The position numbers and the translations under genes are program-made. DNA of 54,670 nt, the filler included, from Jimgerdemannia flammicorona (taxonomy: Eukaryota): the NCBI GenBank assembly GCA_003990765.1. It is 3 parts of 3 records of this genome, joined end to end, with 100 filler letters (N's around TTAATTAATTAA, not from the genome) between each part and the next. Parts side by side here need not be neighbours in the genome. Positions count along the whole stretch, not along the records: positions 36,516 to 54,670 come from RBNJ01002283.1; 2 more parts are not named here. One strand, 5' to 3'. Below, in pieces: positions 18,160 through 54,670 of the stretch (position 1 is its first letter; each line of letters starts with the position of its first letter). The notes under the pieces were generated by a model that worked only from the letters and a program-made list of their open reading frames with translations, had not been told where the DNA came from and ran no database searches.

Positions 18160-18259
18160 NNNNNNNNNNNNNNNNNNNNNNNNNNNNNNNNNNNNNNNNN
18201 NNNTTAATTAATTAANNNNNNNNNNNNNNNNNNNNNNNNNNNNNNNNNNNNNNNNNNNN
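18160..18259. other. Artificial contig spacer
   Basis: 44 N + TTAATTAATTAA (stops in all six frames) + 44 N. Confidence 0.97.
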
Positions 18260-28319: not shown

Positions 28320-28489
28320 GGTTCGACGGAAGTGTGTGTTGAATGGGAGTGGTGGCGTCGTGGACGAGCAAGTCGAGGATGACGCGACTTAACCCTATTT
28401 GGCCAGGGCGTAAAGTTCTCCACAAAACATGTGTATACACAATTACGGTTGGCCGTTGCGGCAATTTGCCAAAGGCTAGTAGGAGGCCA

Positions 28490-30730: not shown

Positions 30731-32772
30731 ATGGCTACCGATGAGAATCCTGAGGTGTGTACTGGGCAGGGTGGCCCTGGAGCATTTGGATGGTAGTATG
30801 TGGGGAGAGGACCTGGCTTGGGGGGAAGCATAAGGGGCCTGCTGGCGGGAGGACATGGTGGAGGAGGAGGCAGGGCTGGAGGGCAAGGGTCTGCTGGTGA
30901 CAATGGGGGAAGATCCAGGTTCCCGAGCTTCGTGGACAAGGTCAAGGGGAGTGGGTGGCCAGCTGATAATAGGGCTGGTGCTGCTGAGGGGAAGGGCAAG
31001 GCAAGCCTAGGGAGGGGGGGTGGTGCTCTGGCTGGGAGTGCAGGAGTAGGGGCTGGAGGGGCGGTGGCTGGGGGTGTGACTATTGATGGGGCGTGATGGG
31101 GAATCAGGAAAAAAAAAGAGATGTAATGGCTGATGGCCAGGTGGGGCAGGGGGTCCCGATGTGGAAGGGGGACCTGGCCGATGGTGTTACGGGGCTGGCG
31201 GTGGCACCGTTACTCAAGAAGTCAATCTCGGAGTTTGCGGTGACTCTGTGCTTCCGAGGCTTAGGGGTGATGGTGAGGATGGTCTTGGGACTTATCTCGA
31301 AGCAGGTGGCTAGGGCAGCTTTAGTGAAATTCCTGAAGGGTTTGGAGGGAGTTGAGGTGGGCTTTGAGGAGGCAGGCCCACTGGAAGAGGCACTGAGGGC
31401 AGGAGTGGCAGTTGGTGAGGTGGTGGTCCCCATTGTATGCTGTTTGAGGTGGGACCCCAGGGTGGTGCAGCTGCTGGTGAAGGGGGTGCCCACAGTGACG
31501 AAGGAGGAGATAAGGAGGAGGGTAGAGGAGGTGATGGCGAAGTATGGAGATGTGGTGGATATTGGCTTCCAGGTGTGGGAGGGGATGACGATCAGGACTG
31601 GTGATGTTGATGTCAGGATTCGGCTGGCAGGGAGGGAGGCCACAGGGAAGGCTGGTGACTGGCCCTCAGTATTGATGTGGGGGGCCTTCATTTGTAAGGT
31701 GTTGAGGGTGAAGGGGAGTGAGGAGGAGGAGGAGGATTTGTTGGAGGCATTGGAGGAGATGAGTGGTACAGTGGAGCGGCGGGCAAAGGCCTGGAAGCTT
31801 TATGAGGAGTCGACGCACTTGGAGATTGTGGAGGGGAAGCGTATCCGCACTGACAAGAGGCAGTGGGAGCAGGCTCAGGGGTGCTTGAGACAGAGGGAGC
31901 TCTTGGCGAGTATGACTGGAGGAGAGAAGAGGAAGGTTGATGGGGCTGAAGAGTCTGGAGGCATCAAAGCCAGTGTATGGACTAGCAAAGGCGGCAAGGA
32001 GCCAGTGGTGACAGAAGAATGGGCTGTGAAGGTACTGAACAGGGATCCCTATACAGATGGTACTTTCGAGGTCTGGGAGAAGGAGTCAGATGGTACCCCC
32101 CCCCCACTTATCAGGAGGGGCCCGGTGGGGTGGAGAGGGGCAGCGGAAGATGTACCGATGAAGGGGGCCCAGCGGGTTACCTTTGGGGTCCCAGATGTGG
32201 TGAAAGGGGGCCAGGTGGTGGCTGTTGGTGAGGACGAGCTGGTGGATGTCCCAGAAGAGAAGTGGAATGAGGATGCCAGTGTGGGTGTGGATACTATGAT
32301 ACTGGATGCAGGGCGGCCAGAGACCCCTGGAGGGAAGGAGATTGGGAATCTGCTGTGGATGAGCAAGGTGATGGATAACCTTGCAGCTGAGGAGTTGGGG
32401 GAAGTGGATCTGAGGGTTATGCCAGAGGAGCACTGGGCATGGATTCTGCGAGGTGAGGGAGTGGTGGAGGCACTGCAGATGGAGATTCTTACAATACTGC
32501 TGGAGGAAGAGGGTTATGAGGTGGATGAGGTGAGGAAGGTGGAGCTGGTGGTTGTTGTGGGTGAGCGGGTGGCCTACTGTTGGGCAGAACGCCATGGTTT
32601 GCAGTTCTGGCAGGAGGCCTGTAGGGAGTATAGGGAGGACTTTGAGGAGAAAGAGGATGGGGCAATGGTTGAACTTCTGGGGGGATTGGAGGCACAGGGA
32701 ACTGAGAGGAAGGAATGGGCTACAGGACACGACTTGGATTTGGCACAGGTGGACTTGAGTGCGGATTTGTAG
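30731..32772 (+). pseudogene. LINE ORF1 (Gly-rich N-terminus, RRM-like core, acidic C-terminus)
   Basis: ATG at 30731 (MATDENPEV). The Gly-rich segment 30800..31096 joins the 559-aa ORF 31093..32772 across an A-run indel and stops. Confidence 0.85.
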
Positions 32773-32803
32773 AGGAGAGGTTTAATCTTTAACAATATTC
32801 CTC

Positions 32804-35800
32804 ATGAATAGTACAACTAATATTTTCTCTCTCAATGTGAATGGTCTTCGAGGATCTGGGTGGCGTAAGAACATTTTTACTTGGCTAAAGGGATTGGAGG
32901 CTGATCTCTTTTTACTGCAGGATGTACGGTGTGAGGATGAGGATGATCAGGTGGAATGGACTAAGGAATGGGGTGGGGCTACTGCTTGGTTTGGAAAGGT
33001 GGCGATTCTGTTGAAGAAGGGTAGAGGAGATTTGGAGGGGATCAAGAACTGGGGAGATTGACTGGTCTGGGGTGAATGGCACTGGCCAGGGTGGGAATCA
33101 GTGAGGGTGGGCTCATGCTACTGCCTGGCAGCTAGGGGAGAGTAGATTGCATGGATCAAGGAACTACTGGAGGAGGGTGTTCTCTTGGAGGATGGGGTCG
33201 ATGTTCTTGGTGGTGATTTTAACATGGTTCGAGATTTGCAGTTGGATAGGACTGATGGAGGAAGAAATGCTGGTGGGAGGAGTGGCGGTCTGGATGCATG
33301 GGAGGAGGTAGAAAACCTTAGCTCCTTAGGGGATATGGGCCGAACATGGTGGGGCGACACCAGGGTCTACACACACTGGGTGAATGGCTTAGGGACAAGG
33401 ATTGACTGGATTCTGACAGCTGAATGTTGGGGTGCTGATGTCTGGAAGACTTTGGAGGTGGTGTGGTGCCCGTGGTCTGATCACTGGGGACTGATTGGCC
33501 AGGGGCGGTTTGGGGAGAGTAGAGATGGACCCAGACATTGGCATCTTAACTCCTCCCTGCTGGCTGAGAAGGGGTTGTGGGACTCATGGGTAGAGGACAT
33601 ACAGGCAAAGATTCTGTTTTAGAGGCAGGAGGGTTTATCTGTGGGTGTCCGTTGGATGAGATTGAAGGAGGCTGCGAGGGTTTATTGGGGAGGAGCTGGT
33701 AGGGAGGCAGGAAGAAGGAGGAGGAGGCAAATACAGTCTGCCTCCAATAGGCTGGGGAGATTGCAGTTGGAGTGGGCAGATTTGCTTGCATCTATGAGGT
33801 GGAGGATTGGAGGTTAGTGAGGGCGAAATTGGAGGTTGTAGAATTGCAACAGGTGTTGCGAGAGGAGGAGGAGATTCATATGCGAGGTATGGCAGCCAGG
33901 CTTAGATGGCAGGGGCTTGAGGAGGGGGAGTGGCCTACTAGGTACTTATCTAGGCTCCTCAAAGCCAAGCGGGTGAGGCATAGGTGGGATGGGATCTTGG
34001 ATGCTGAGGGAGAGTTGGTGCATGGCACACAGCAGATCCTGGGAGTGTTGAAGGAGAATTGGTGGGGTCTGTGGAGTGAGGAAGAAGGGGGTGCTGATGC
34101 AGAGGCGATTGGTGACACACTGGAAGAGTGGGAGCCACCACAGATAGAGGGGCTGAGTGACTTGACCTTACCTGTCCAGGAGGAGGAGATACAAGGTGTC
34201 CTGGCAGCGACTAAGCTTGGGACGGTGCCAGGGGAGGATGGGTTACCATGGGACTTCTGGAAGAAGATGGTGGAAGTCCCAGGGATGCTGGGTGAGATGG
34301 CGGCCCTCTGTGACCATGTTCTTCTGAATGGCATGTGGGTTGGTGAGCAGGACTTAGGGCTGGTTGCCCTATTGTACAAAGATAAGGGCCGGTATAAGGA
34401 TTGGAAGAACTGGAGGCCAATCATGCTGCTGGATATGGATTGGAAGTTGGTGACTAAGGTGATTGTTGCAAGGCTACAGAAGGTTGCTCAACAAGTGCTG
34501 GGGGAGGAGCAGCAGGGCTTTGTAGGTGGTAGACTTATAAGAGATGGAACTGCCTGGGTACATGGCATTATTGAAGGAGCCCAGGCCTGTGGACTGGATG
34601 GGAGACTGGTCTTTTTGGATCAAGAGAAGGCCTACGACCATGTTCGGTGGGTTTGGTTGGGCAAGGTACTGGACAGGATTGGTGTTCCGCCACAGTTTCG
34701 AGCCTCTATGTTGAGTTTGTTGGAAGGGAGTCGAGCAGTGCTGATGTGTAATGGTCATAGGGGTTTGGCATTCCCCTTGGGGAGAGGAGTCCCTCAGGGG
34801 GACCCACTGTCCCCTATCCTTTATACACTCTCCTTGGAACCTTTGATGGACAGGATCTGTAAGACTCTGTATATGATGTGGAATGGAAGGTGGGGGCCTT
34901 TGCAGATGACATAGTAGTTGGACTTGGATCAGTAGTGGATGTAGAGGCTCTTCGGGAAACAGTGGAGTGATATGAGGCACACTCTGGAGCAAAGCTCAAC
35001 TGGCATAAGTGTGAGACAATGGTGCTGGGGAATGGGCTAGTGGGAGGGGATGTCATTGGAACAATTGTCCCCACAGGAGAGGTGGTGCGGTACCTAGGTA
35101 TCTTCCTCTCTGTATATGGATCAGTCCTACCATGGATATGGTGGGAGAGGAGGGTGGCCATTTGGAGAGAGGCTCTAAAAGGCTGGGGGGGTCGTCACAT
35201 CTCCCTGGCAGGGAGGGTGGCAATTCTGAATATATACTGGTTCCCCAAGCTGTGGTATGTGGCATATCACTTAGACTTTCCTGCTTGGGTGGTAAAGAGG
35301 CTGATGAAACTAGCTAGGGATTGGATTTGGGCTGGTAGAAGGGCCCAGATCAGTTGGGATACCCTTGTTGAGCCAGTGCTTAGGGGAGGCCTGGGCCTTG
35401 TGGATTTCCCTAAGTATCTACACTGCCTGCAAGCTTGGTGGTTGAGAAGGGCTGTTGATCTACAGGGTGGAGGTTGGGTGCCATTGATGAAGAAGGTGTG
35501 GGAGATGAGAGTCTCCCCCCGGGGGTCCACAGGGGATCTACTCTCTTTGGTGGGTCTGACGGTTATGGTATAAGGGCTTCTGGTGGGGAGTGGTTGATGG
35601 GGTGCACTGGATAGGCCTATGCTGGCATGGAAATGAGGGGGAGGAGGTATGGGGTCCAGCTATGTGGTGATGGGACTGTCTGCTTCTAGGGGGAGTTCCA
35701 CTAGCTGAGTTTGACATTGGCAATGGAGTAGAGTGTCAGTGGCAAATTGGCCAGGATCTTTGGCCAAGTAGCTGGCAGGCAGTGAGGATTGGTGAGGAGT

Positions 35801-36415
35801 GGGATTGGGCAAGGATCTGGTCTTGGAGTATGGAGGTCCGGCGGTGGCTCCCTCCCAAGTTCTGGGTAGTGTAGTGGCATATATTGCAGAGGAATGTTAT
35901 GTTGAACTTCCGTGCTGGACATCTAGTGGATGGGGGTCAGCTGGATTGTGAGGAGTGTTTTAATGTTGGGCAAGTTGGGGATTTTGTGCAAATACCAGAA
36001 CATTGGCTGGGGGAGTGTGAGGTTCTGGGTGACTTTTGGATAGCTGTAGGGGACTGCCTTGGGGTTGAAAGGAGACCAGATGGGGAGAGAGGTCGCTGGA
36101 AAGATCTGGAATCTAGACTTGTGGGAGGTGTTGGTAATGGGTGGCTTACTGTAGGATGGGTTGTGGCAGTGTGGGTGGGGTTGGCTGGACATTGGCTCTT
36201 TGTTTTTGAGGAGGGGCGACAGATAGGGATACAGGAGAAGTTATTGAGATGGGAGGAGTTGGTGGCAGATTTGTTGACAGGGTGGTGGGTTGGGTGGGGA
36301 CTGCAAGGTGGGCGACATCGCTGTCTGGTGGAAGGGATCTGTGAGCAGAGTGGTGGGCGGGTGGCGATGGTGTTTGATAAAGTGGTTTTTCGTCAAGAAG
36401 GGGTAGAGGGGGGGG
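32804..36415 (+). pseudogene. LINE ORF2: APE endonuclease + RT + C-terminal CxxC..H..C
   Basis: MNSTTNIFSLNVNGLRG, LLQD, GGDFN, RIDWI, SDH. PGEDG, NWRPI, LDQEKAYDHV, QGDPLSP, FADD. CEEC...EHWLGEC. Confidence 0.95.
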
Positions 36416-36515
36416 NNNNNNNNNNNNNNNNNNNNNNNNNNNNNNNNNNNNNNNNNNNNTTAATTAATTAANNNNNNNNNNNNNNNNNNNNNNNNNNNNN
36501 NNNNNNNNNNNNNNN
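36416..36515. other. Artificial contig spacer
   Basis: 44 N + TTAATTAATTAA + 44 N. Confidence 0.97.
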
Positions 36516-36766
36516 ACAGGTTGGTGGGTGGGTTGGGGACCTCAGGGGGGACGACATCGAAGTTTGGTGATGAAGATCTGTAAGCAGAGTGGTGGGAGGG
36601 TGGGGATAGTGTTTGTCAAAGTGGTCTTTCACAGAGAAGGGGTAGGGGGGGGGAGGGCCCCCTAGGGGGATTGGATAGGGGTGGTTTCATTGTAATTATA
36701 TAAGATAGATGAGTATTAATAAAGGAAGGGAGTCCAAGTGACTATAAAAAAAAAAAAAAAAAAAAA
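36516..36766 (+). mobile_element. 3' end of another LINE copy with AATAAA and poly(A) 36746-36766
   Basis: Homologous to 4385-4638. Overlaps but differs from 36277-36415, so it is a separate copy. Confidence 0.9.
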
Positions 36767-37730
36767 TCAAGTGAATTCAGGTCTATCTGTCCACAAGATA
36801 GCTGCAAACATAGGTGTTAGTCTCATGACAGTCAGTCAACTTAGAAAAGAACATTGTACAGATGTCAGTTTATCCAAAGGAGGTCATCTGAGCCTATTAA
36901 CAACTTATGATAAATTATGGATTATATGTCAAGCAATATCTACCAAGTCAGATACTGCCTTTATAATCGCCAAAGACCTTAGAAATGATGGCCAAGTATC
37001 TGTTAGTGGTCAGACTGTCTGCTGAGTTCTGAAAAATACTGGGTTGAAGACTGTAATTAAGCAGAAAAGATTAAGATTATTATGATATCATATCAAAGCT
37101 TAGTTTGTCTTTGCCCAGAAGTACAAAGACTGGACTGACAATAACTGGAAACATATCATATTCTCCAATGAGACTAAGATTAACTACCTAGGATCAGATA
37201 AATAGATATGGATATGGAAGAAGCCTGGTGAGGGACTTACTGATTATTTAGTAGATAGAACAGTAAAATTTGGTGGTAGATTGCTTATACTTTGGAGCTA
37301 TATGATATATGATGGACCCATATTTGTATGTCAGATTGATGGCAAGATGAATGTGGATCTATATACTAGTATCCTAGATGATAAATTATAGCAAATGTTT
37401 AAATATTATGATATTGACCCCAAAATGACAATATTTCAATAAGATAATAATTCCAAGCATACATACAAATGGTTCAATAACTATTTGATTGAACTACTTG
37501 ACTGGCCCATGCAATCCCCAGACCTTAATCCAATCAAATATCTCTAGCATCATCTCAAACAAATGCTAAATAGGTATGAAGAGGTACTGAAGGGGATAAT
37601 AGAACTTTAGGAGCATATCGAAAAGAAGTAGAATACTATTCCTATAAGCATATGTGTAGATTTAATAGAGAGTATGCCTAGGTGTATAAATGTAGTATTT
37701 AAAGCCAAGGGGATATATACAAAGTACTAA
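36767..37730 (+). pseudogene. Tc1/mariner-family transposase (DDE, degenerate, N-terminus missing), directly followed by poly(A) 37729-37796
   Basis: HTH-like VSGQTV..LK, WKHIIFS(N/D)ETKIN, TVKFGG, IFQQDN.SKH, LDWPMQSPDLNPI, ESMPRC..V.KAKG.YTKY*. Confidence 0.93.
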
Positions 37731-37796
37731 AAAAAAAAAAAAAAGAAAAAAAAAGAAAAAATAAAAAAAAAAAAAAAAAAAAAAAAAAAAGAAAAA

Positions 37797-38468
37797 GAGT
37801 AGATGTATGAAGGAATATTGTGGGGAAGTGCTCAGAAGTTGTGTTTGGATTGTTCAAGTATTCAAGTCTGAGATTCTGAGGTCTGGGAGAGGGAGTATAT
37901 ATACTAGTGAGGGGTTATCTAAGCTATACTAGATATGGATGTAATACTTAGTGCCTTGCTGAGTTAGAATACAGTCACATAGTATAAGTGTAATCTGATA
38001 TAACAAAAGATCATCTGACTGCTGAGTTAGTTCACAGTTATATCATATAAGGCTAATCTAACTATACTATGACTGCTAAGCTATTTATAGATTTAGAGGC
38101 TGTCTGGTTAGTCTTTAATGACATCACTATTGATGATATCATTCCTGGCAAAGTCGGAGTAGTTATCTAACTTTTGACATTATGAGTTTCTAGGTATCAT
38201 CACTTCTATCTCTTGTAAGATTAAGGTTGTCCTTAGTTGCAGTGGTTGTACAAGGATAACAGGTCTTGGTTCTCTTTTTTTTTTAGTCTGCTGGTACATT
38301 TGTGAGGACTAGTCATCCTTGTCTAGGGCAAGAGCTCCTAATGTCATGGCTGGGGGTTTGAACCTCTCAGAAATAATATATATTTTCTATAATCTGAGGC
38401 AATTTCTAGTAATAATATCTATCATGTAGATGGCTTGTGATTGGTTTCAATGATATTGGCTTTCTTTA
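37797..38468 (-). repeat. Variant 3' LTR of chromovirus copy C, part 1 (R/TATA region and U3, left of LINE copy 3)
   Basis: 37797-38135 aligns with 17010-17360 and 52895-53240. From 38140 onward the sequence diverges from the other LTRs. Confidence 0.8.
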
Positions 38469-41400
38469 CTGACCACCTTTCACCAGTAACATTCAAGTGA
38501 TACAAGACTCAAGCAACACTTTTGACAATATTTTTGGTGAAAGGTGACTAGCAACATGGAAAGCAATGAACATACAGGTGTATGTACTAACCTAGGGCCT
38601 TTGACTGGCAGCAGGTGGGGAGGGGTTATGGCCTGGAGATGGGGGCCTTTAGTGGGCCAAAGAGTGGAGAAGGCTCTAGAGGGGGACTGGTGTCCAGTGG
38701 CGATGGGGGAAGATCTCATCTCCCGAGCTTTGCAGACTAGGTTAAGGGGAGTGGGTGGCCAGCTGGTACTGAGGCTGGTGCTGCTGAGGGGAAGGGCAAG
38801 GTGAGCCTTGGGAGGAGGGGTGGTGCTCTGGCTGGGAGTGCAGGCATAGGGGCTAGAGGTGCTGTGGCTGGGGGTATGATTGTTGATAGGAGTGTGATGG
38901 GGAATCAGGAAAAAAATGAGATGTGATGGCTGATGGCCAGGTGGGGCAGGGGTTCCCAATGTGGAAGGGGGACCTGGCAGATGGTATAATGGGGCTGGCA
39001 GTGACCCCATTGCTCAAGAAGTTGATCTCAAAGTTCATGGTGACCTTGTGCTTCTGGGGCTTAGCAGTGATGGTGAGGATGGTTCTGGGGCTTGTTTCGA
39101 AGCAGGTGGCTGGGGCAGCCTCGGTGAAGTTCTTGAAGGGTCTGGAGGGGGTCAAGGTGGGCTTTGAGGAGGCAGGCCCACTGGATGAGGCACTGAAGAC
39201 TGGAGTCATGGTTGGAGAGGTGGTGATCCCTATGGTGCAGTGCTTGTGATGGGACCCCAGAGTGGTGCAGCTTCTGGTGAAGGGGGTGCCTACAGTGACT
39301 AAGGAGGACACTAGGAAGAGGGTGGAGGAGGTGATGATTGAGTATGGTGATATGGTGGACATCAGCTTTCAGGTGTAGGAGGGGACAATGATCAGGACAG
39401 GTGATGTTGATGTCAGGATTTGGCTGGTGGGCAAGGAGGCCATGGAGAAGGCAAGTGACTGACCTTCTGTACTGATGTGGAGAGTGTTCATCTGTAAGGT
39501 GTCAAGGGTGAAGGGGAGTGAGGAGGAGGAGGAGGACTTGTTGGAGGTGCTGGAGGAGATGAGTGGAGCTGTGGAGTTGAGGGTAACGGCCTAGAAGATA
39601 TATGAGAAGTTGATGCATCTGGAGGTTGTGGATGGGAAACACATCTGTACTGACAGGAAGTAGTGGGAGCAGGCACTGGGGCGCAGAAGGCAGAGAGAGC
39701 TACTTGCGAGTATGAAAGTAGAGGCAAAGCAGAAGGCAGTGGGAGCTGAAGGGTCTGGGGGTGTCGAAGCCAGTGTTTGAGTGAGTAAAGGAGTTGGGTA
39801 GGTGGAGGCGGGAAAGGAAGGGGCTGAAAAGATGCTGAGCAAAGACTCCTACACTGATGGCACTTTTGGAGTCTAGGAGCAGGAGCTGGATGCAACCCCC
39901 CCCCCTCTTATCAGAATCCCTGATGTGGAAAAAGGGGGTCAGGTGATGGCAGTTGGTGAGGATCAGCTGGTGGATTTCCCTGAGGAGGAGTGGGATGAGG
40001 CTGCCAGTGTTGGGGCTGATACCATGATATTGGACATAGGATGGCTGGGGACTCCAGGAGGGAAGGAGGTGGCGAACTTGCTGTAGATGAGCAAGGTGAT
40101 GGATAACCTCACAGCTGAGACTTTGGGGGAAGTAGACCTGCAGGTAATGCCTGAGAAGCATTGGGCACAGATTTTGCACAGCAAGGGAGTGGTGGAGGCA
40201 CTGAAGGGGGAGATTCTTTCAATTTTCCTAGAGGAGGAGGGATATGAGGTTGATGAGGTAAGGAGGGCTGAGCTGGCGGTGGTTGCTGGTGAGCAGGCAG
40301 CATACTGTTGGGCAGAGAGGCATGGTTTGTAGTTCTGGCAGGAGGCCTGTTGGGATTATTGTGAGGACTTTGAGGAGCGAGAAGATGGGGCTATGTTAGA
40401 ACTTCTGGGAGGGTTAGAGGCACAGGAAGCTGGTGAAAGGGATCTAGCTGCTGATCATGACTTGGATTTGTTACAGGAGGAGCAGGATGCAGAATTGTAG
40501 AGAGTGGGTTCATGATACAACTTTTTTCTCTTATGAACAGTACAACCAACATTTTCTCTTTGAATGTGAATGGGCTTAGGGGATCTGGGCGGCATAAGAA
40601 CATTTTTAATTGGCTCAAGAGATTGGAGGCCAATCTCTTTTTACTGCAGGATGTTCGGTGTGAGGATGAGGATGATTGGGTTGAGTGGACTAGGGAATGG
40701 GGTGGGGTTACTACTTGGTTTGGAAAAGTGGCAATTCTGGTGAGAAAGGGTAGAGGAAACTTGGGGGGTATTGGGAGCTGGAGTGATCACTTGGTCTGGA
40801 GAGATTGGTATTCGCTGGAGTGGTAGTCAGTGAGGTAGTCAGTGAGGGTTGACTCTTGCTACTACCCTGCAGTTAGGGGTGAGAGGATTGCATGATTTAA
40901 GGAGCTGCTGGAGGAGGGTATTCTCTTGAAGGAAGGGGTCGATGTGCTTGGGGGGGACTTTAATATGGTTTGGGATCAGCATCTGGACCGAACTGATGGT
41001 GAGAGAAGTACAGGAGGGAGAAGTGGAGGCCTGGATGTATGGGGGAGTTGGAGTGGCTGAGCTCCTTAGGGGATATGGGCAGAACATGATAGGGCAACTC
41101 CAGGGTCTACACACATTGGGTGAATGGCTTAGGTACATGGATTGACTGGATTCTGATAGCAGAATGCTCGGGGTCTGATTTCTGGAAGGTTTTGGAGGTG
41201 GAATGGTGCCCATGGACCAATCACTGGTGTCTGTTGGATGAGATTGAAAGAGGCTGTGAGGGTCTATTGGGGAGGGGCTGGGAGTGAAGCTGGGAGACAG
41301 AGGAGGAAGCACACAAGGTGTGCTTCCAACAGGCTGAGGAGATTGCAAATGGATTTGGTAGGTTTGCTTACTTCTGATGGAGTGGAGGATTGGAGGTTAG

Positions 41401-44118
41401 CATGGATTAAATTGGAGATAATGGAACTGCAACAGGTATTGAGAGAAGAGGAGGAGGTGGATATGTGAGATATGGCTGCTAGGCTAAGGTGGTAGGGGCC
41501 TGAGGAGGGTGAGTGGCCTACTAGATATTTATCCTGTCTGCTCAAAGCTAGGAGAGTGAGACATCAGTGGGATGGAGTCCTGGATACCAATAGGGACATG
41601 GTACATGGCATGCAACAAATCTTAGGAGTTTTGAAAGAGAGATGGCCGGGTTTGTGGAGTGAGGAAGAAGGGGGTGCTGATGAGATGGCTATCGAAGATA
41701 CATTAGAGGAATGGAGGCTGCTGCAAGTGGCTGGACTGGATGGCTTGGCCTTGCCGGTACAAGGTGAGGATGTCCAGATTGTCCTTGTGGTAACTAAAAC
41801 TAGAACTGCACTAGGGGAGGATGGACTACCATGGGACTTCTGGAAGAAGAAAGTCAAGGTCCCTGGCATTTTAGGTGAGATGACTGCTCTCTGTGATCAT
41901 GTTCTTCAGAGTGGTGAGTGGGTTGGAGAGCAGGATCTCGGGCTGGTGGCTTTACTGTACAAAGACAAGGAGAGGAGAGAAGACTGGAAGAACTGGCAAC
42001 TGATCATACTTTTGGACATGGACAGGAAGATGGTGACTAAGGTGGTTGTTGCAAGGCTGCAGAAGGTTGCCCAACAGGTACTAGGGGAGGAGCAGCAGGG
42101 CTTTATTGGAGGCAGACATATAAGAGATGAGATTGCATGGGTATATGGTGTCATTGAAGGGGCCTGGGCTTGTGGCCTAGATGGTAGGTTGGTCTTCTTG
42201 GACCAGGTGAAGGCCTATGACTGGGTCCAGCAGGTTTGGCTGGGCAAGGTGTTGGATCATATTGTTGTTCCTTCAGGATTTTGAACTTCTATGTTGAACC
42301 TGCTAGAGAGCAGTTGGGTGGTGCTGATGTGTAATGGTTACTGTGGTCTGGCATTTATCTTAAGAAGAGAGGTTTCTCAGGGAGACCCCCTGTCCCCTAT
42401 TCTTTATGCTCTCTCATTGGAACCATTAATGGATAGGATTTGCCAGAAGGTGGTAGTGCTCTCTATCTATGGTATAGTGTGGAAGATGGGAGCTGTTGCA
42501 GATGATATAGTGGTTGGCCTTGGGTCTGTGGCGGATATTGAGGTACTTAAGGAGATGGTGGAATGGTATGAGGATCACTCTGGGGCAAAGCTCAACTGGC
42601 ATAAGTGTGAGACTATTGTGCTTGGGAATGGGCTGATGGGTGGGGATGTCATTTGAACAATTGTCTCTACTGGTGAGGTGGTACAGTATCTGGGTATATT
42701 CCTCTCTGTATATGGCTCTGTCTTGCTACGAGTGTGGTGAGAGAGCAGGGTGGCTGTTTGTGGGGAGGCCCTTTGAGGTTGGGGAGGCTGCCATATCTCT
42801 CTAGCAGGGCAGGTATCAATTCTGAATACATACTGGTTCCCCAAGCTATGGTATGTGGTCTACCACCTAGACTTCCCAGCTTGGGTGATGAAGAGACTGA
42901 CAAAGGTGGCTAGGGATTGTATTTGGGCAGAGAGGAGGTCCCAGATCAGTTGGGATACTCTTGCAACACTGGTGGTCAGAGGAGGTCTTGGCCTTGTAGA
43001 TTTCCCTAAGAGGTTGCACTGCTTGCGAGTCTGGTGGTTGAAGAGAGTGGCTGAACTGCAAGGAGGGGGTTGGGTGCCTCTGCTGCAGAAGGTGTGAGAG
43101 ATGAGAACCTCCCCCCGAGGGTCCTCAGGAGATCTACTCTCTTTGGTAGAGCTCAATGGCATTCAGAGGCTGCAGTTTAAGGGCTTTTGGTGGGGAGTGA
43201 TCAATAGAGTGCACAGAATTGGTCTGTGCTGGTAAGGCAATGAGGAGGAGGTGTTGTTGGGACCTAGTATGTGGCAATGAGATAGACTACTACTGGGGGG
43301 TACTCCACTTGCTTCCTTTAATATTGGGGACAGAGTGGAGTATCAGCAGGGTCTTGGCCAGGATCTTTGGCCAAGCAGTTGGCAGACAGTCGGGATTAGC
43401 AAGGAGTGGGACTGGGCAGGTATCTGGTCTTGGAGTGCTGAGGTATGGTGGTGGCTTCCCCCCAAGTTCTGGGTGGTGTGGTGGTGAATGTTGAGGAGTA
43501 ATATCATGCTGAATTTCTATACTGGGCATCTGGTGGATGGTGGCTGTTTCAATTGTGAGGAGTGTTATAATGTAGGGTAAGCTGGGGGTTTGGTGCAGAT
43601 GCCAGAACATTGGCTGGGAGAGTGTGAGGTTTTGGGGGACTTTTGGGTTGAAATAGGGAATAGACTGGGTGTAGAGTGCAGGCTGGCAGGTGAGGGGGAT
43701 CGCTGGGAGGACTTGAGATCTTGGCTAGTGGGGAGGGTGGGTGATAGTTGGCTCACTGTCAGGTGGGTGTTAGAAGTTTGGGTGGGATTAGCAGGACATT
43801 GGCTATTTGTGTTTGAGGAGGGGCAGTAGATGAGACTGCAGGAGAAGATTTTAAGATAGGAGGAGCTATTGGGGGATCTGATGACTGGATGGTGGATAGG
43901 TTGGGGTTCTTCAGGTGGGCAATGGTGAGGTTTGGTGGCAAGGATATGTGAACAGAGTGGTGGGAGAGTGGGGATTGTATTTGATAGAGTGGTATTTCGT
44001 CAAGAAGGAGTAGGAGGGAGGGGCCCTCCTTGGGGTATTAGATAGGTGGTGGGTTCACTGTACTTATATGAGATAGATGGGTGTAATAAAGAAAGAGTCC
44101 AAGTGACTTAAAAAAAAA
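38469..44118 (+). mobile_element. L1/Tx1-like LINE, copy 3 (full-length span, degenerate) with ~17-bp TSD
   Basis: 5' UTR, ORF1, ORF2, AATAAA and poly(A) 44110-44118. Flanks are GATATTGGCTTTCTTTA (38452-38468) and GCTATTGGTTTTCTTAA (44119-44135). Confidence 0.93.
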
Positions 44119-44579
44119 GCTATTGGTTTTCTTAAGTTCAGATGAAGTATTCATCATTCTCCAATGGAGGTGACACAGATAGAGCAAATGGAGTTGTTCA
44201 AATGTGTTTTGCTTCAGCTAAGTAATGAGGTCTTGTATAGTTGTGGAGTATCTTGATCTTGAGTTTGATAGGTGCAGTTCATCAACCCTTGATGGATGAG
44301 ATAGGGTCCTTCTTGTCTCAGTTTGAGTTTGGTACTTTCGGTTTCCTTTTGTAATAATACTATATATCAAACTAGTTATAGAGGTTCACAGTCAGTCTTA
44401 TGATTGTAGTACTTCTTCTGGTATTCTTGTATCTTGGCAGTAGGTTCTCATGTTTGCTGGTGTATTTTGTGTAACTAAATGATCTCTTCAATAACTTGTT
44501 TTATAGTCTCAAATGTGGTTTCCAAATTAGTTCTGAGGATGACATGTGATTTTGGTGGCTTAGAGGTTGTGTACTTACA
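44119..44579 (-). repeat. Variant 3' LTR of chromovirus copy C, part 2
   Basis: The last ~65 bp (…GGTGGCTTAGAGGTTGTGTACTTACA) match the LTR ends at 10312 and 54563 and abut the PPT ACTCTCCCC at 44580. Confidence 0.8.
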
Positions 44580-47500
44580 ACTCTCCCCATCTTAGCTTTT
44601 AATGTCCTCATTGAGACCTTTTAATTCATTCTAGTATTGTTATACCATTTGGGAGGTCAAAAGTCTGGTAAAGTCCATTTTTCTCAGAAAGTGGTATACT
44701 CATAGTATAGTTGTCTGATGTATTGGATTCACATATTTAAAGGGTTGTGTGTTCAATGCCATATGCCAGAAGTAATTCTGATGTCATTCACTACTGGAGA
44801 ATTTCCTCTAAGAAATCTTCTTAAATTTCTATGCCTTGTTTCCCACCAGGGATATGGGGAGAATAGGCTTGCTTTCAGTTTTGCTATTTTTCCAGAGGGT
44901 CAGTATTCTTTGTCTTGTCTTGCTGAGGTCTTGATTTTATTTGTGATAATTATAATGTTCAGGAGGGTAATATATAGTATGTACTAATAGGTATGGAATA
45001 TTTGGTTTTAGTTGTTCAAGGAATCATATTTCTGAACTAAGTCAGTAGCTTTCTTGAGATTGGTCTTGGGTTCCCAGGTTGTATCATGGATTGGGTAACC
45101 TTTCTATTTGACAAGGTACTCAGGGTGATTCTTGAGACCACGTTTGTTGAGAATTTGTTCAACTTTATATTCTTCTTGGTCATTAATAATGATAGGTACA
45201 GGTGGTTCAGTGGTCTGGCTTGGGAATAGTGCATCATTATTTTCATTGTATTGTTTGAGATATTGAACATTAAAGACTGGGTGGACCTTAATGGTATCTG
45301 GTAGCACTAATTTGTAAGAGGTTGAAGAGACTTGTGCAATGACTTCAAAAGGTCTAATAAATTTGCTGTTTAGCTTTGTAGATGGTCTGTACTTGAGGTT
45401 TTCAACTTGGTATCCTCAGATGTCCAGTAGAACTTTTTCTCTAATGTCAAAGGTTTCTTCTTGGCAGTATTGGTTAACATACTGTGACTATTGTTCTTAA
45501 GCTTGCAATAAATTCTCAATTGCGATCTGGCTTATATTGCATATTCAGAGTAAGAATTCTTCAACAGCTTTAACTGTAGAGAGTTTGTCAGTAGTTTGGA
45601 TAAGTGTCAGAGGGGTGTTTGGATTTTGTCCTGTATTGGCAAAGAATGGGGTCATTCTAAGAGAGGCTTGCTTGCTGTTATTATAGGCAAACTTGACTGC
45701 AGTGAGGTGTTCATACCAATCATCTTGTCAATAGGAAACTAGTTCCTTAGCATTTGTTCCAGAGTTCAGTTCATTCTTTTGGTTTGGCCATAGTTTCAGG
45801 GTAAAAGACTGTGGTTAGTGCAAGGTTCATTCCGAGGTATGCATGGAGGGCTTTCCAAAAGTGGCTGGTGAATTTTGGGTCTCAATTATTAACAATGATC
45901 TTAAGAAGATCATGATAGTAGAATATGTTGTCAAACAAGAGTGTGGCTATATCTGGTGCTGTTGCAGTAGTAGTAGTTGGTATGAAGTGGGCTTGCTTGC
46001 TGATATCGTCCACGAAGACAACAATTGCATCTTTCTCATTCTTAGTTTTGGGTAGTTGTACAATGAAGTCCATTGAGATTTATTCTCAATTAGCAGATGG
46101 TACTGAGATAGAGTATAGTAAGCCAGGTTTTGCTAGTGTTGAGGACTTGTTGCATTGGCAGATATCACAGGAAGTGATATAGATCTTTAGCTGATCTGCC
46201 ATGTGGGGCCAATAGAAGTTTTAGGAGATAACTTCATAGCATTTGTCAAATCCTAAATGTCCAGCTGTAGGGGCATCATGACATTTGAACAGAATTGTCC
46301 TCCAGAGATCTTGGTTGTTTGGGACATACAGTCTGTCCTTATAGTAGATAGTATTATCCTTGAGTTGGTATTGGTTGTACTGAGTATATTTGTCAGCATC
46401 ATCACTGCTTAGGATTCCTTAGAGTGCTTGGGCTTCTTTATCATCAGTATATGCTGTGATAATTTATTCCATGATAGAGTTTGTAATCAAGGTGAGAGTT
46501 TGAATAACTTCTTTGATTAGTGGTCTGGAGATTACATCAGCAATGATATTTTTCTTACTAGGGCAATACTGAATTTCATAGTCAAAGTTGGTGAGGACTT
46601 TCATCCATCTGGCTTGCTTTTGAGAAAGGGTAGCCTGGGTCTTGATATTGACTAATGACTTATGGTCAGTCAATATAGTAAAGTGTGCTTCTTCTAAGTA
46701 TAGTCGCCATTTGATCAGAGTGTCTACAATGGCTAGCATTTCCTTCTCGTGGGTTACATAGTTGATTTCAGCATCATTGAACTTGCAAGAATGATAGACC
46801 ATAGGGTGTCCTTCTTGCATAAGCACTGCTCCAATAGCTAGATCAGAGGTATTAGTAGTAACTTTGTATAATAGAGCAGGGTTTGCCACTTGAAGTACTG
46901 GAGTGGTTATCAAGGTATCCTTCAGTGCTTGAAAGGTGATATCTTGCTCAGGTCTCCAATTTATAAGATTATTGAAGTCTTTCTCTTGTTTTGTGATCCA
47001 GGGCTGTTCTTCTTTCTTGCTGTACTTGGTCATTTGAGTGAGGGCAGTGGCGATTTTGGTGAAGTTGATAACAAATTGCCTATAATAGTTTGCTAATCTC
47101 AGGAATGACTAGAGGTCTTTCAGCTTCTTGGGTCTGGGCCAATCTTTGATTGCAGGGATTTTGCTGGGGTCTACTTTGATTCTATTTGGCATGACAATGT
47201 ATCTAAGGAATTAAATTTCTTTCAAGAGAAATTCACACTTGCTGAGTTTTGCAAAGAGTTAGTTTTCTCAGAGTTTCAGTAGTACTCATTCAAGGTGTTC
47301 AAGGTGTTCCTCCAGGGTTTTGCTGAAGACTAGGATGTCGTCAATGTAGACAACAACAAATTTGTCTAGGTATGGGTACAGGATGGTGTTCATCAGTGTC
47401 TGAAAGGTTGCAGGAGCATTAGTTAAGCCAAAAGGCATAACTGGGAACTCAAAGTATCTATAATGAGTTTGGAAGGCTGTCTTTTAGGTGTCTTCTTCTT

Positions 47501-49991
47501 TCATGGCAATTTGCCAGTAATCATTTCACAGGTCAAAAGAGCTCATAAATTGTAGATTGGTGAGTCTATTGAATATTTTGTTGATTCTGGATAGTGGGCA
47601 ACAGTTCTTGATGGTCTGTTCATTGAGGTTACAGTAATCAATACATATTTGCAGGTCTCCTCCTTTCTTTACAATGAAGAGGACTGGTGCACCATAGAGT
47701 GATACACTTGGTCTGATAAATCCTAGTTCTATGAGTTTGTCAATTTCTTTCTTAAGTACATCAATTTCTCTCAGAGACATATGGTAGATTGACTTGAAGG
47801 CTGGCTTGGTATCTGAAATAGTCTTGATGGCATAGTCTACTGCTTGTTTAGGTGGTAGGCCTTTTGGAAGCTTCTTCAGGAATATGTCTCAGAATTTCTG
47901 GAGTAAGGGTCTAACATGGCTGTCGACTTTGGAAAAGTCTTCTTCAGAATTCTCAGGTTCTCCTTTAGATGAGTGGATGGAGATAGCGAAGAGAGGGCAT
48001 TTCTTGGCCAATTTCTTGAGCTGTAGTTTGTTGATATTTGTGATCTTTGGTCCAGGGTCACTAGGGCTGAGTGGGTCCTTTTTGCCTTACAGTTTGAAGT
48101 TGTGGCATCCTTTCTTGATGATTAGAGAATGGTTTACCCAATCGATTATGGGGTTCTCTTGTTTTAACCATAGAGTCTCAAGAATGAATTCATTATCATG
48201 GAGTGGTATGATCTGGAAGGTAATATGTACTTGGTAGTCACTAATTCAGAAGGGCAGATTGTGGACTTCCTTACTAATAACATGTGAGGTTCCATCAGCT
48301 GTGGCAACTGCTTGAGTTTGTTGTACCAAAGAGGTGAAGATCTTGAGTCTGTTGGCTGTTTCTTCATTAATGAAGTTGCCTGAGGTACCACTGTTTATCA
48401 TAATCTTAACAGGTGCTCAATTGACAAAAGTTTGAAGTGTAAGCAGTTTGTCTGATACAATGGTAGTGATTTTGGTTGTAGAAGCTTTTCTTCTATTGGT
48501 TCTTCTTTGAGCCAGTTTGTTGATACAAGAGAAGCAATTATCAATTATTTGAGAAGAGTACATCTCAATGCTATGGGGACATCAGCCACTTGGTACATAT
48601 CCATCTTTGATCTTCTTATAGAATTGTTCTTCTTTATTCATAGTAGGTTGAGCTGGGGCCTTGTTTGATGAGCGAAATCCTTTGGACCCTCAGATGGTGA
48701 GCAGTAGTTCAGGAACTTCCTTGACTGTCATGGTTGACTGGATTTTTTCAAATAGGATCTGAGTAATACAGAAACTAATGGAGATCTTGAAGGGTGTCCT
48801 ACTGTAGTTTCGGATAAGAACAATAATTTTGTCTGTGTAATCTTCATCAATGACTCCTCCTTCTACTGAGAGTCCTTTTAATACTAGGCTGCTGTGACAG
48901 CATATTCTTCCAATATGTCCTTCAGGGATTTAGATACTGATTCCTATATAGACTTGCTTGACTTCTCAGTCAGAAACTGTAGCTTCTTTGGCTGTATACA
49001 GATCATATCCAGCTGCCTTTTGACTTCCTTTAGTTGGGGCCTTAGCAGTTTGTCTTAACTTGACAAAGTCCAGTGTTCTGGTGGTCAGGTTATTGAGGTA
49101 GTGCAGAGTAGTAACAGTTGCTCATGTTGCTGTTCAGGGTTTTCAGTTGGGGCAGGCACTGGTCATGTGTCCTGACTTTCAGCAATAGAAGTATGCTCCA
49201 CTTCTTCAAAGTTCATTTTTTCTCCTTCAGTGAGTTTCTTAAAGGTGCTCGGCTAGGTGGGTTCATGATTTCTGAATGTCCAAGAGGTGGATGTGGAGGG
49301 AGCTTGGGATGCTTCATGCTTGGGTTCTTCTTTCTTAGTCCAAGTTTTTTCCTTATTGTTAAATTGTCTTTAGGGCAGAATTGGTCCAGCTGTTAGGATT
49401 CACTTGACCATAGTCTTGATTCTTGCCAGGCACTATTGTTGGTGATCACAACCAACTGAGTAGCCTTGTTCTCAAATTTTTCTAGTAAGCCATTCAGGTA
49501 GGGCATTGAATCAATAGTCTGCTCTTATATCATTTTGTGCTTCATCATTAGCAATATATCCTAGGCCAACAGTATTCAGAAGTGACTTGCTGTATATATC
49601 AAATTTGAGGTTGCAGAGCTTTACTCAAGATTTGGCAATCATGGTTTTACTGCAGTATTGAGCAATCATGAGTTGTATCAGTCCAGGAGCTACAGGATGG
49701 GCTTCATATCCTGGGGCATTATTTGCTGTATTCTGAGCAACTACTGCAGGTTGGGTGTCCCATGTGAGGGGTTTTTCAGGAAGAGTTCACCACCATTCTT
49801 CGGCAGGTCCTCAGAAGAATGTAACAACTCAGTGGACATAGGCCATAGTAGTAGCAAAGAGTTGTTCCAGAGTGTGGTCTTGATTATTTATCAGAAGGCA
49901 ATCAGCAACTCACTCATTTGTCCATCGATTGGCTTCAAAGTTGATTTCAACTATACTAATGAAGCTTTGGACTTCTTGTGCAGTACCATTG
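44580..49991 (-). mobile_element. Chromovirus copy C internal region (PPT, chromodomain, integrase, RNase H, RT, PR, dUTPase, partial gag)
   Basis: Colinear with 10313-15545. More stops than copy B. Gag is cut at 49991 by a copia LTR. Confidence 0.94.
48665..49075 (-). pseudogene. dUTPase (copy C)
   Basis: KAAGYDLYTA...CHSSLVLKGLSVEGGVIDEDYTD...GSKGFRSS. Confidence 0.9.
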
Positions 49992-50747
49992 TATTGTGAA
50001 CTCAGGAGGAATAGGAAGGATGAGAGAAGAAGAATGTTTATTGATCACCTAATGTTACATGCTTTTATGTGATTATTGATGATGTCACCCCAATGCCACT
50101 GCGCCACAAATTATCTATATTGAGTGCTATATCAAGTTGGAATCTGTAATCTCAACACTCCCGCTCAACGAGATAAAGATTGCAAATGCAAATAAAACTG
50201 ATCAATCTCCAGCTAAGTTAAGCAGAAAACAAAACATTGCCAAAGGGATACTATCTAGATGACCAAAAAAGGTTGAAATTCCCTACTTATAAGCATAAAA
50301 ATACATAAGAGAAGTAGTGAAAAAATGGAAATCCTGAGCAATGTTATAGGTTTCCATTACAAATATTTGCTGTAACACTCATTCTACCCATCGTTTCACT
50401 GTAATATTTATTTTTACCCATTGTTCACCATTATTTGCTCGTCGCTCGTCATTATACCCATTCCTTGCACACAAAAATCAAACTTTGCCTTTGGAAGGGC
50501 CTTCATTAGTGAATCTGCTGCCATTTGCTCCGTAGGGGTGTATAACAGGCATATAGCCTTGTTATCAATGCATTCTCATATGTAATGGTGCTGTATATCG
50601 ATATGCTTGGTCTTTGCATGATATATAGAATTTTTTACCAAAGCAATGGTGGATTGGTTATCCTGTCATATAGTCATAGATTCTTGAGGGAATCCCAGAT
50701 TCTTTAGCAGTTCACGAAGCCAGATGGTCTCCTTCATCGCCTCCAAG
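49992..50747 (-). mobile_element. Ty1/copia 3' fragment: RNase H (50450-50747), PPT (50158-50168), ~166-bp LTR (49992-50157)
   Basis: KETIWLRELL...QDNQSTIALVKN..YHAKTKHIDIQHHYI...TEQMAADSLMKALP is typical copia RNase H. Minus strand TTGAGCGGGAG|TGTTGAG. Confidence 0.9.
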
Positions 50748-52865
50748 TCTTTTCCTTGTTGTTAAATTATCTTCATGGCAGAATTGGTCCTGCTGTTAGG
50801 ATTCGCTTGACCATAGTCTTGATTCTTGCCAGGCACCATTGTTGGCGGTCACAACCAACTGGGCAGCCTTGTTCTCAGATTTTTCTAGTGAGCCATTCAG
50901 GCAGGGCATTGAATAAATAGTCTGCTCTTGTACCATTTCATGCTTCATTGTTGGCAATGTATCCTAGGCCAACAGTGTTCAGGAGTGACTCGAGCTTTGT
51001 ACAGAAGGTTTCAAATTCTTCTTTGCCATTTACATCGAATTTGAGGTTGTGGAGTTTTACTCAAGATTTGGCAATTATGGTTTCGCTGTAGTATTGAGCA
51101 ATCATGAGTTGTTTGAGTCCAGGGGCTGCAGGATGGGCTCTATATTCTGGGGCATTGTTTGCTGTATTCTGGGCAACTACTGCAGGTCAGATATCCCATG
51201 TGAGGGGTTTTTCAGGAAGAGTTCACCACCATTCTTTGGCAGGTCCTTGGAAGAATGTAACAACTCGGCAGACATAGGCTGTAGTTGTAGCAAAGAGTTG
51301 TTCCAGAGTGTGGTCTTGATTATTTGTCAGAATGCAGTCAGCAACTCGCTCATTGGTCCATTGATTGGCTTCAAAGTTAGTGTCAACTACACTAATGAAG
51401 CTTTGAACTTCTTGTGCAGTACCATTGAAGGTAGGTAGGCTCAGATTTTTGGTAGGTTGGGTCTGTTCAGCTAAGGCAGTAATGGTTGCTGCCATTATGG
51501 CTACCTGGGCTGTGAGGTCTAGAATCTGTTGGTTCACCATGTTGTTTACTAGAGGCGGTTGGACTGCTGGTAGTAGTGTTACTGGTACTACTTAAGGTAC
51601 TGGTGCAGAGTGTGATGGGGTTCTTTGGGTCTGTGTAAGTTGCTGGAGTAGTAGTTGTGAGTCTGGAGTGAGGGCTTGATAGATAACTGTTTGTTGTTGA
51701 GTAGGTGTATTCTGTCCTGATGGAGGTACTTCTCCTTCGGTGGTATATCCGAGATCGAATTCAGTGAGATACTCCTCCTCCTCTTAAGTTTGGTCCCTGT
51801 GTAATTGGGTTTGCTCGGCGTCAAAGTAGATGGAATCAGTTGTATATCTGATTTCAGATGGACTTAATTCAAAGTCAAGTTCAGGTTCAGTATTGGTTTC
51901 AGATTCAGATTCAGCTGTAGCAGGGCCTGCTTCAGGTTCAGGGTCAGGTAATTGATGAAGGGTTTCTCTTGCTTCTTCTTTAAGGATATGTATGGTGGGC
52001 CTTGCTGTTCTGGAATCAGTAGTATAAGGCGGTCTTGGTCCTGGTGCGGTGAAAGTCAGTAGAGTTGAGCCACTTGGCTACAGAGGCTTGGGCTTCATGA
52101 GGAACTAAGGCTACAAAGACTGCTGCTGGTTGTCCTAGGTCGCTTGGATTTGTGGAGCTGACAAAACTCTTATTGAGAAGAGTAAAGAAGGCTTCAATAA
52201 GACCTTCTTCATCTTGACTTACTGGGTGTAGTGCAAGGAGTTCAGTGAATAGAGTTTCACCTATTTGCTGGTTTAACCGGAGTACTTCTTTCTTAGAATG
52301 AAGTTTGTCCCACTTGTTGCAGGTATAGAGGTCAAATTGTCCTTGTATGTCAGGTTCAATTCTCTCCAGATTGTTAGATGGTTCAGGATAAATTCCAGTT
52401 CAGAGGTTGGGCTTTATACCAACTTGTAGGAATTTCTCAGAAGGGTTTGTAGCAGGGTGAGGAAGCGTCTTGAAGCAGAATTGGATTGTAAACCGCTGCT
52501 ACCAAGTTGTAAGAGGGTTGCTTTTTTAGAGTAACCATTATGTAGTTCTGGAAAGGTTTTCTGGATATTCTGGATGTTCTGGAAGACCATTTTCTTATGG
52601 TCAAGATCAATTTTGTATGGAGTACGTCCTCTATGCTTATTGATTTCAAGATCATGTTGATGTCTCAACCAAAGTCCTTTTTGGACTAGTTCTGGATGTT
52701 CAGGATTTTCCACATTTCAGGAAGTTCAAGAAACTAAGACAAGCTTAGTTGAATTGGTATATCGCTGCAGACAATACCCAATTAGGAAATTTAGTGATGG
52801 GGTTAGAAGTAGGACCTAACAAGGAGTGGATTTACTTAAGAGTGGTTTGTGGGTTATTGAATAGG

Positions 52866-52994
52866 TTTATTTGCTATTCATGATATTGCTATACTAGGAG
52901 TAGTTGTGTGAAGGGATATTGTGGAGAAGTATTCAGGAATGTTCTTGTGTGTTCGAGTCTGAGATTCTGAGGTCTGGGAGAGGGGGTATTTATA
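52866..52994 (-). promoter_or_regulatory. LTR TATA box (TATAAA, 52994-52989) and poly(A) signal (AATAAA, 52871-52866)
   Basis: Both are conserved at the equivalent positions of the LTRs at ~8870/8750 and ~17115/16982, and their order fits U3-R-U5. Confidence 0.7.
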
Positions 52995-53183
52995 CTAGTG
53001 AGGGGCTATCTGAACTATGCTAGATATGGATGTAGCACTAAGTGCCTTGCTGAGTCAGAATGCAGTCATATAGTATAAGTGTGATCTGACATGTCAAGAG
53101 ATCATCTGACTGCTGAGTCAGTTCACAGTCACGTTGTACAAGGCTAATCTAACTATATTATGACTGCTAGGCTATTTATGGGT

Positions 53184-54281: not shown

Positions 54282-54670
54282 ATTTGTGTATTTGGAAGTT
54301 TTTGTTTGTTTTGGTTCTCTGTTTCAATGCATCTCGGTGCTCAGTATGTATACATTTGGTCCTGATTGGTAAGATTCCGTTTGTGTAAATCTTGTGTTCT
54401 GTGACTTTGTATTGACTCAGCTTTGTCCACTGTGACTTCGGTTTGACTCAGCTTCGTGATCAAGCAGGTGATTTCCAGATTTGTTCAGAGCTCACGTGTG
54501 ATTTCAGTGGCTTGTTCAGAGGGTGATGTGTAATTTCGGTGGCTTGGAGGTTGTGTACTTACACTTCCTATATTCTAATAACTTACTATATTTTAACTTT
54601 TGGTTTTCTGCTTTCTTAATGACCAACTATATTCTGATGACCTATTAGCCCACCCATATCCTGATGAACT

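Follow-up and report, generated by a model that had tools for sequence, protein, structure and literature searches.

Accessory genes that lie in or overlap the U3 region of the long terminal repeat (LTR) are known from retroviruses, for example sag of mouse mammary tumor virus (MMTV), and yeast Ty1/Ty2 hybrids are mosaics of LTR and coding blocks that go back to recombination during reverse transcription. Here we describe a stretch of 54,670 nucleotides from Jimgerdemannia flammicorona (assembly GCA_003990765.1), the whole of which is called the window in the following and which harbors, on its minus strand, three copies (B, C, and D) of a Ty3/gypsy chromovirus. The LTRs of copies B and D carry an open reading frame (ORF) in U3, intact or in remnants, whereas the 3' LTR of copy C has a conserved U3 terminus and promoter-proximal part, but a different and non-coding U3 interior. 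We assume, with a probability of about two in three, that the copy C LTR is an ORF-less derivative which arose by a single non-homologous replacement, similar to the modular evolution known for U3 regions. A preliminary description of the window had instead proposed that U3 is a variable gene cassette, which is swapped between fixed flanks and diversifies in an arms race with the host.

In the Ty1/copia elements Tnt1, Retrolyc1, and Retrosol of the Solanaceae, U3 blocks that cannot be aligned to each other define subfamilies, which has been interpreted as modular evolution of regulatory sequences (PMC1838419). The chromovirus resembles the Tnt1 superfamily in its unalignable U3 blocks next to a conserved coding region and conserved remaining LTR parts, here with one variant copy compared to three sister LTRs. 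However, the Tnt1 elements are plant copia elements, the U3 variants of which are non-coding regulatory boxes with many copies each, whereas in the chromovirus one U3 type holds a protein gene and the other type was seen once. LTR retrotransposons of bdelloid rotifers, several of which have a dUTPase, carry varied extra ORFs that are thought to be gained by template switches mediated by reverse transcriptase (RT) (PMC5408684). They are similar to the J. flammicorona element as LTR retrotransposons with additional ORFs and, in several cases, a dUTPase, but their ORF3 is located between pol and the 3' LTR and comprises several ORF types, whereas here the ORF is located inside the LTR and is of one type. 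Furthermore, dUTPase-bearing chromoviruses are described from fungi, namely the PosPlaTy3 families of Postia placenta, elements of Phanerochaete, and Tmt1 of Tuber; the position of the dUTPase within Pol varies, and some of these elements are listed with an "additional ORF with unknown function" (PMC2864245). With these gypsy elements the J. flammicorona element shares the chromodomain and the dUTPase.

The LTRs of the J. flammicorona family have the ends TGTAAG...CTTACA and are therefore of the TG...CA type. A sequence resembling a primer binding site (PBS), TGGTAGCAGCGG, is found 2 nt past the 5' LTRs of copies B and D, and a polypurine tract (PPT) is present upstream of the 3' LTRs of copies B and C. 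The order of Pfam domains on the minus strand of copy B is zf-CCHC, dUTPase, RVT_1, RT_RNaseH, Integrase_H2C2, and Chromo, and a protease DSG motif was recognized by eye. Judged by LTR ends, PBS, PPT, domain order, and the C-terminal chromodomain, the family can be classified as a Ty3/gypsy chromovirus. Copy B consists of its 3' LTR (B3, 8388-10312), an internal region reaching to 16621, and its 5' LTR (B5, 16622-~17880), in which the 5' half of U3 is missing. Copy D comprises its 5' LTR (D5, 52508-54563) and gag down to 50742. D5 has a length of 2056 bp with exact border motifs at both ends and served as reference. Close to its start, D5 also contains a tandem duplication of 32 bp (54515-54546), which is absent in B3 and in copy C. 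The 5'-truncated internal region of copy C (44580-49991) contains a decayed gag end, dUTPase, protease, RT, RNase H, integrase, and chromodomain, with 27 stops in 1278 aligned codons of gag-pol. Its gag-pol is 86.5% identical to that of copy B over 5172 nt, compared to ~91% between B and D, and can thus not be called near-identical, as the preliminary description had done. With four LTRs and two or three internal regions for comparison, copy C is the outgroup in gag-pol as well as in the shared LTR parts, where it shows 44 private differences in the shared segment versus 4-9 in each other LTR. It is also the copy most depleted of CpG dinucleotides, with an observed/expected ratio of 0.09, compared to 0.24 in B and 0.45 in the interior of D5.

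The 3' LTR of copy C is split by a long interspersed nuclear element, LINE copy 3 (38469-44118, plus strand), an RT-bearing non-LTR element that is nested in the U3 interior, has an RVT_1 match, ends in a poly(A) at 44110-44118, and shares 80-83% identity with two other LINE copies (10-4626 and 30897-36415). It is flanked by a target-site duplication of 17 bp, the left copy of which (38452-38468) is part of the U3 interior and agrees with the right copy (44119-44135) in 14 of 17 nucleotides, a value that was not attained by any of 2000 neighboring 17-mers. Therefore, both flanking pieces represent one LTR split by the LINE, and taking LINE copy 3 out restores the 3' LTR of copy C, exactly as the preliminary description had put it. 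Throughout the analysis the two pieces were treated separately. The LTR starts with TGTAAGTACACAACC at 44579 and adjoins the PPT (44581-44600, minus strand), a purine-rich run that is conserved with copy B.

Homology of the copy C LTR to the sister LTRs B3, B5, and D5 is confined to two stretches, which agrees with the earlier observation that the terminal ~65 bp, the last ~20 codons of the ORF, and the TATA/R region are what these LTRs share. The first stretch is the conserved 5' terminus of U3 (44515-44579, minus strand), with which the LTR begins; it comprises 65 bp, starts with TGTAAG, and has an exact border motif at 44565-44579. Together with the PPT region (44515-44626) it is 79% identical to B3 and D5. 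The U3-side border motif is exact at 44565 and at 54549, and a copy with 2 mismatches lies at 10298. The second stretch extends from 38154/38169 down to 37797 with 82-87% identity to the three sister LTRs, and firm homology starts between 38169 and 38142. It begins with a remnant of the U3 ORF, consisting of the last ~22 codons and the stop (38093-38169, minus strand), which contains one in-frame stop and a small indel and was found by tblastx and by DNA alignment to D5, B3, and B5; ~17-22 codons of this ORF tail are retained, and the frame and at least 15 of ~23 residues are kept. The tail is followed by the promoter-proximal part of U3 and the start of R up to the cut end (37797-38092, minus strand; 82-87% to the three sister LTRs), comprising a 63-bp tandem repeat (37957-38059) and a TATA box (37895-37903), the TATA box and R being putative assignments. 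All four LTRs share an invariant block of 23 nt after the TATA box. They also have in common the conserved 63-bp tandem repeat upstream of it, which resembles an enhancer repeat.

The copy C LTR ends at 37797 in R, corresponding to position ~1666 of 2056 in D5 numbering, where it is interrupted by a Tc1-like transposase fragment with a 77-nt A-rich tail (36767-37796, plus strand). The matches of this fragment to HTH_Tnp_Tc3_2 and DDE_3 are weak and both under the Pfam cut-offs. Thus, of the LTR borders that copy C was said to have in common with its sisters, the U3-side border is present, whereas the other one is not in view; its motif TGTAAGAGGGTT occurs exactly only at 8388, 16622, and 52508 within the window. 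The Tc1-like fragment, which is decayed, is located directly behind the poly(A) (36745-36766) of another LINE, the front of which is cut off by the beginning of the assembled piece. The fragment resembles a 3' transduction by a LINE or a LINE-mediated retrocopy of a DNA-transposon transcript.

Between the two conserved stretches copy C has an interior of about 680-693 bp, which reads on the element strand from 44514 to 44136 (part a, 379 bp) and then from 38468 to 38170 (part b, 299 bp). The sister interiors measure 1120 bp (B3) and 1188 bp (D5). A sensitive blastn search (word size 7) with the copy C interior against the interiors of B3 and D5 gave no match, tblastx against the sister interiors gave none better than E 0.5, and in six Smith-Waterman comparisons of C with sister interiors the z values ranged from -0.54 to 1.94, which is similar to shuffles; the comparison of B with D reached a score of 777. 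The impression that these ~700 bp are not alignable is therefore confirmed by all three methods. That the interior is a diverged homologue of the ORF-bearing U3 aligning at the protein level, a case that the preliminary description had itself named as speaking against its proposal, is rejected by the same comparisons.

Furthermore, the interior of copy C is non-coding. Codon usage, expressed as a log-likelihood score trained on the genes of copy B, amounts in the best frame to -0.19 bits/codon for part a, for which no DNA, translated, or Pfam similarity was found, and to -0.17 bits/codon for part b, which has no relatives found either. For five non-coding controls, which were taken from U3 ahead of the ORF, from R-U5, and from the extra 3' UTR segment, the values are -0.06 to -0.18 bits/codon. 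All 14 windows of the decayed copy C gag-pol score above the interior (minimum -0.033, median 0.147), and the copies of the U3 ORF, including the decayed one of B3, reach 0.13-0.28. The three frames contain 6, 7, and 8 stops in ~126 codons of part a and 7, 4, and 11 stops in 104 codons of part b; shuffles have 8.3 +/- 2.8 and 7.1 +/- 2.5, respectively, so that the stop density of the interior is shuffle-like. When the frame of the ORF tail is followed over the LINE junction into part a, 8 stops are encountered there. No Pfam match was obtained with the 12 frame-pieces (six frames of two pieces), and no protein homologue was found for the frame that had been read before as another degraded protein-like sequence. 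Stop density, codon usage, and the lack of a protein homologue give no support to a decayed gene, and thus to a second cargo gene in copy C. A known transposable element or protein domain as the interior has no support either, since Pfam gave no match, no second copy was found on either strand of the window, and neither terminal inverted repeats nor a flanking duplication were found inside the interior; an unrelated transposable element with its own target-site duplication had been the other case considered as speaking against a cassette. The sense strand of the interior consists of A 0.40, C 0.21, G 0.145, and T 0.24, which is the same skew as in the rest of copy C, and its CpG observed/expected ratio is 0.09-0.10 compared to 0.09 in copy C gag-pol. 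As composition and CpG depletion match those of copy C, the interior can be assumed to be as old as the copy and to be retroelement-like in this orientation.

In the sister LTRs, U3 contains an ORF that is a genuine gene under purifying selection. It is intact in D5 with 251 codons plus stop (53184-53939, minus strand) and located upstream of the TATA box, with the ATG at LTR position 625 and the stop at 1380, followed by a TATAAATA box at ~1565 and AATAAA at ~1694. In B3 the ORF is decayed by stops and a 107-bp deletion (9137-9749), and in B5 it is cut (17320-17870). Differences between copies are distributed over codon positions 1/2/3 as 18/8/38, 22/14/41, and 12/8/43. Among 5.8 billion proteins a sole homologue was found, P0001, which has 247 residues and is 64% identical over 98% of the query, with two small gaps and with its Met start and its end at the same places. 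When 1.84 billion representatives were searched in full with HMMER, P0001 was obtained again and in addition the tandem-repeat protein P0002, which we read as a spurious match. Because of the excess at third positions, the 251 intact codons in D5, and the full-length homologue, the ORF of the sister LTRs is regarded as a real gene, and here the preliminary description was right. The predicted protein, which is acidic and has a high content of Tyr and Pro, belongs to no Pfam family, an Atlas search gave no usable neighbor, and the AlphaFold2 model is uninformative, with a mean predicted local distance difference test (pLDDT) of 32; by these three approaches no relationship to a known retroviral accessory protein was found. 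When gag was used as a query to control for coverage of the protein database, 0 relatives were obtained. Therefore, the databases hardly contain this chromovirus family, and the scarcity of matches to the U3 ORF is uninformative. Contigs from metagenomes, viruses, and genomes were searched by protein alignment with the U3 ORF as query, which resulted in 0 confirmed loci, and in the same three sets there were 0 matches to a 20-mer taken from the invariant block that follows the TATA box.

Like MMTV sag, the U3 gene is a sense ORF inside U3, upstream of the LTR promoter. In contrast to MMTV, the element is a chromovirus-type retrotransposon without env, and the protein is without a Pfam family. 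The U3 ORF would reach the genomic RNA only via the 3' LTR and would presumably need a subgenomic or spliced mRNA for its expression. An acceptor-like CAG, seen by eye 2-5 nt upstream of the ATG in both D5 and B3, hints at a spliced mRNA for the gene. A literature search for ORFs inside retrotransposon LTRs gave, among the matches listed, only retroviruses or unrelated topics, which is not proof of absence, and no description of this element was found in that search.

The copies of the family have exchanged sequence at least over a short distance. In a block of ~45 bp after the TATA box, in which an indel of 11 bp is located, the closest agreement is that of B5 with C (92%) and of B3 with D5 (93%), the approximate positions being 16990-17040 in B5, 37797-37880 in C, 8790-8830 in B3, and 52910-52960 in D5. 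As B5 groups with C and B3 with D5, the two LTRs of copy B are not sisters in this block, which breaks the otherwise consistent pattern among the four LTRs with C as outgroup and points to recombination or gene conversion between copies. Together with the real gene in the sister copies, the sharp homology breaks, of which the right-hand one falls inside the ORF ~20 codons before the stop, and the varied extra ORFs captured by bdelloid LTR retrotransposons (PMC5408684), this exchange could be taken to indicate an exchangeable cassette, in which template switching swaps accessory genes in U3 and a conserved acidic tail is the fusion partner of each, copy C then carrying a decayed second cargo. 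We consider this distinctly unlikely, as no frame of the copy C interior has a coding signal, the frame continuing the tail is interrupted by the 8 stops in part a, the interior has no Pfam or protein relatives, and there is a single variant, which was seen once. The same U3 slot was found with one ORF type and not with two or more unrelated ones. It is very unlikely, moreover, that U3 is an accessory-gene slot in which unrelated genes sharing the same acidic tail are exchanged between co-packaged RNAs and the orphan protein acts as a host-interaction factor under diversifying pressure. Repeated exchange and an arms race with the host are thus not supported by a variant that was seen once.

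Which of the two U3 types came first can be addressed by the rate at which the ORF changes. D5 and B3 differ at 64 of 646 sites of the ORF (9.9%), compared to ~9% in other alignments of D and B. The ORF thus evolves at about the rate of the element, and therefore the lineage of P0001 (64% identity at the amino acid level) should have split long before copies C and B (13.5% difference at the nucleotide level). Since P0001 split deep and copy C keeps an in-frame ORF tail, it is most likely that the ORF-bearing U3 is ancestral and the U3 of copy C derived. Conversely, the C-type U3 could be the ancestral one, and the B/D lineage could have gained an ORF block of ~1.2 kb, with the ORF reading into the old U3 for its last ~20 codons. 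Copy C being the oldest by CpG decay (0.09 versus 0.24 in B and 0.45 in D) and the outgroup in every shared segment would go along with such a gain. However, P0001 has the same ORF including the tail and, with the ORF changing at the element's rate, would be deeper than the split of C and B, and the tail in copy C keeps the ORF frame and at least 15 of ~23 residues, so that a gain in the B/D lineage is unlikely.

For the single replacement, which we prefer, the following course of events can be proposed. Copy C would be an old, 5'-truncated member of a sister lineage within one Ty3/gypsy chromovirus family, the ~2-kb LTR of which would normally carry a 251-codon orphan gene wholly inside U3. 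In copy C, U3 positions ~66 to ~1310, and with them the non-coding part ahead of the gene as well as ~229 codons from the start of the gene, would have been removed, and ~680 bp of unrelated, A/C-rich, non-coding sequence would have been put in their place. The survivors would then be what the LTR needs in cis, namely the terminus recognized by the integrase next to the PPT and a promoter-proximal block of ~250 bp with the TATA box and R. Because the conserved flanks are the parts needed in cis, the break would fall inside the dispensable gene. The ORF tail, which had been proposed to be a fixed fusion partner, is better read as a remnant of the deleted gene and would not be a fusion module. 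Sharply bounded flanks around a non-homologous interior are the pattern of non-homologous recombination or template switching, and the event may have been a template switch in reverse transcription or an illegitimate recombination. In this respect copy C differs from the Ty1/Ty2 hybrids, where homologous alternatives from two known families were combined, whereas in copy C no known source can be assigned to one of the two partners. Between the pol end and the PPT, copy C has an extra 232 bp (44627-44858, minus strand), where copy B has 17 bp, and no relatives of this segment were found within the window. Because the composition is uniform and this extra segment precedes the PPT, as in diverged subfamilies, we slightly favor a replacement in an active lineage over one that took place in situ after insertion.

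Several points weigh against the replacement as we describe it. The variant interior is known from one copy, copy C is without a 5' LTR in the window, and no source was found for the ~680 bp. In part b, 4 stops interrupt the 104 codons of the best frame, compared to 2.2 expected at the rate of copy C gag-pol, and the stop counts by themselves do not exclude a decayed ORF in the interior. A cargo gene with foreign codon usage, or one far more decayed than gag-pol, would escape the coding tests, and the absent matches in protein databases carry little weight for a family that is barely represented there. Finally, the argument for an ancestral ORF assumes that P0001 never moved between lineages, and it rests on a single contig of 998 bp.

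The window is composed of three separately assembled pieces, which are joined at 18160-18259 and 36416-36515 by spacers of 100 bp, each consisting of 44 N, a 12-base linker with stops in all frames, and 44 N. This composition and an odd junction of copies C and D would be in line with an assembly artefact, in which highly repeated DNA was joined wrongly in a draft and the variant LTR thus arose. At this junction copies D and C overlap with a duplicate of ~650 bp (85% identity), and 750 bp of foreign sequence lie between them (49992-50741, minus strand). One frame of this filler resembles, by eye, the C-terminal end of a Ty1/copia polyprotein, and no Pfam match was obtained with it; D and C are so regarded as two elements joined through a copia fragment. 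However, the variant LTR of copy C is located entirely inside the third piece (36516-54670; RBNJ01002283.1), in which it contains 0 N, its interior halves are tied together by the target-site duplication of LINE copy 3, and neither base composition nor CpG decay changes at the junctions. Such an artefact is therefore extremely unlikely. As the spacers show that the pieces were joined artificially, the element named LINE copy 2 represents two different LINE fragments; 36277-36414 and 36516-36653 cover the same LINE region with 81% identity.

According to self-comparison as well as ORF and Pfam scans, the window consists mostly of decayed transposable elements. Fragments of at least one other gypsy family are present; those at 28280-30660 (minus strand) comprise part of an RT and a second dUTPase at 29295-29708, and another RT fragment is located at 5123-5695 (minus strand). 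The only apparent host gene in the window is a multi-exon gene for a GH18 chitinase at 26132-28300 (minus strand) with two CBM5/12 modules and a Gly-rich linker, which has a G+C content of ~55% and is not depleted of CpG. Together with the occurrence of dUTPase-bearing chromoviruses in fungi, this chitinase gene makes a fungal host probable. The CpG observed/expected ratio is 0.05-0.45 in the transposable elements compared to 0.77 in the chitinase region. The CpG loss of the transposable elements fits a methylation-driven decay of repeats and a relative age of C > B > D.

A variable U3 is an ordinary feature of the evolution of LTR retrotransposons, and an exchange of cargo is not shown by copy C. 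Of more lasting interest is a by-product, namely a chromodomain gypsy element with a 2-kb LTR that carries, entirely in U3, an orphan gene of 251 codons which is under selection, an arrangement best known from the accessory genes of retroviruses. Copy C would be a natural deletion derivative of this U3 gene, and a comparison of gene-bearing and gene-less lineages in copy number, age, and silencing would offer an inexpensive first approach to the role of a gene that is borne by an LTR.

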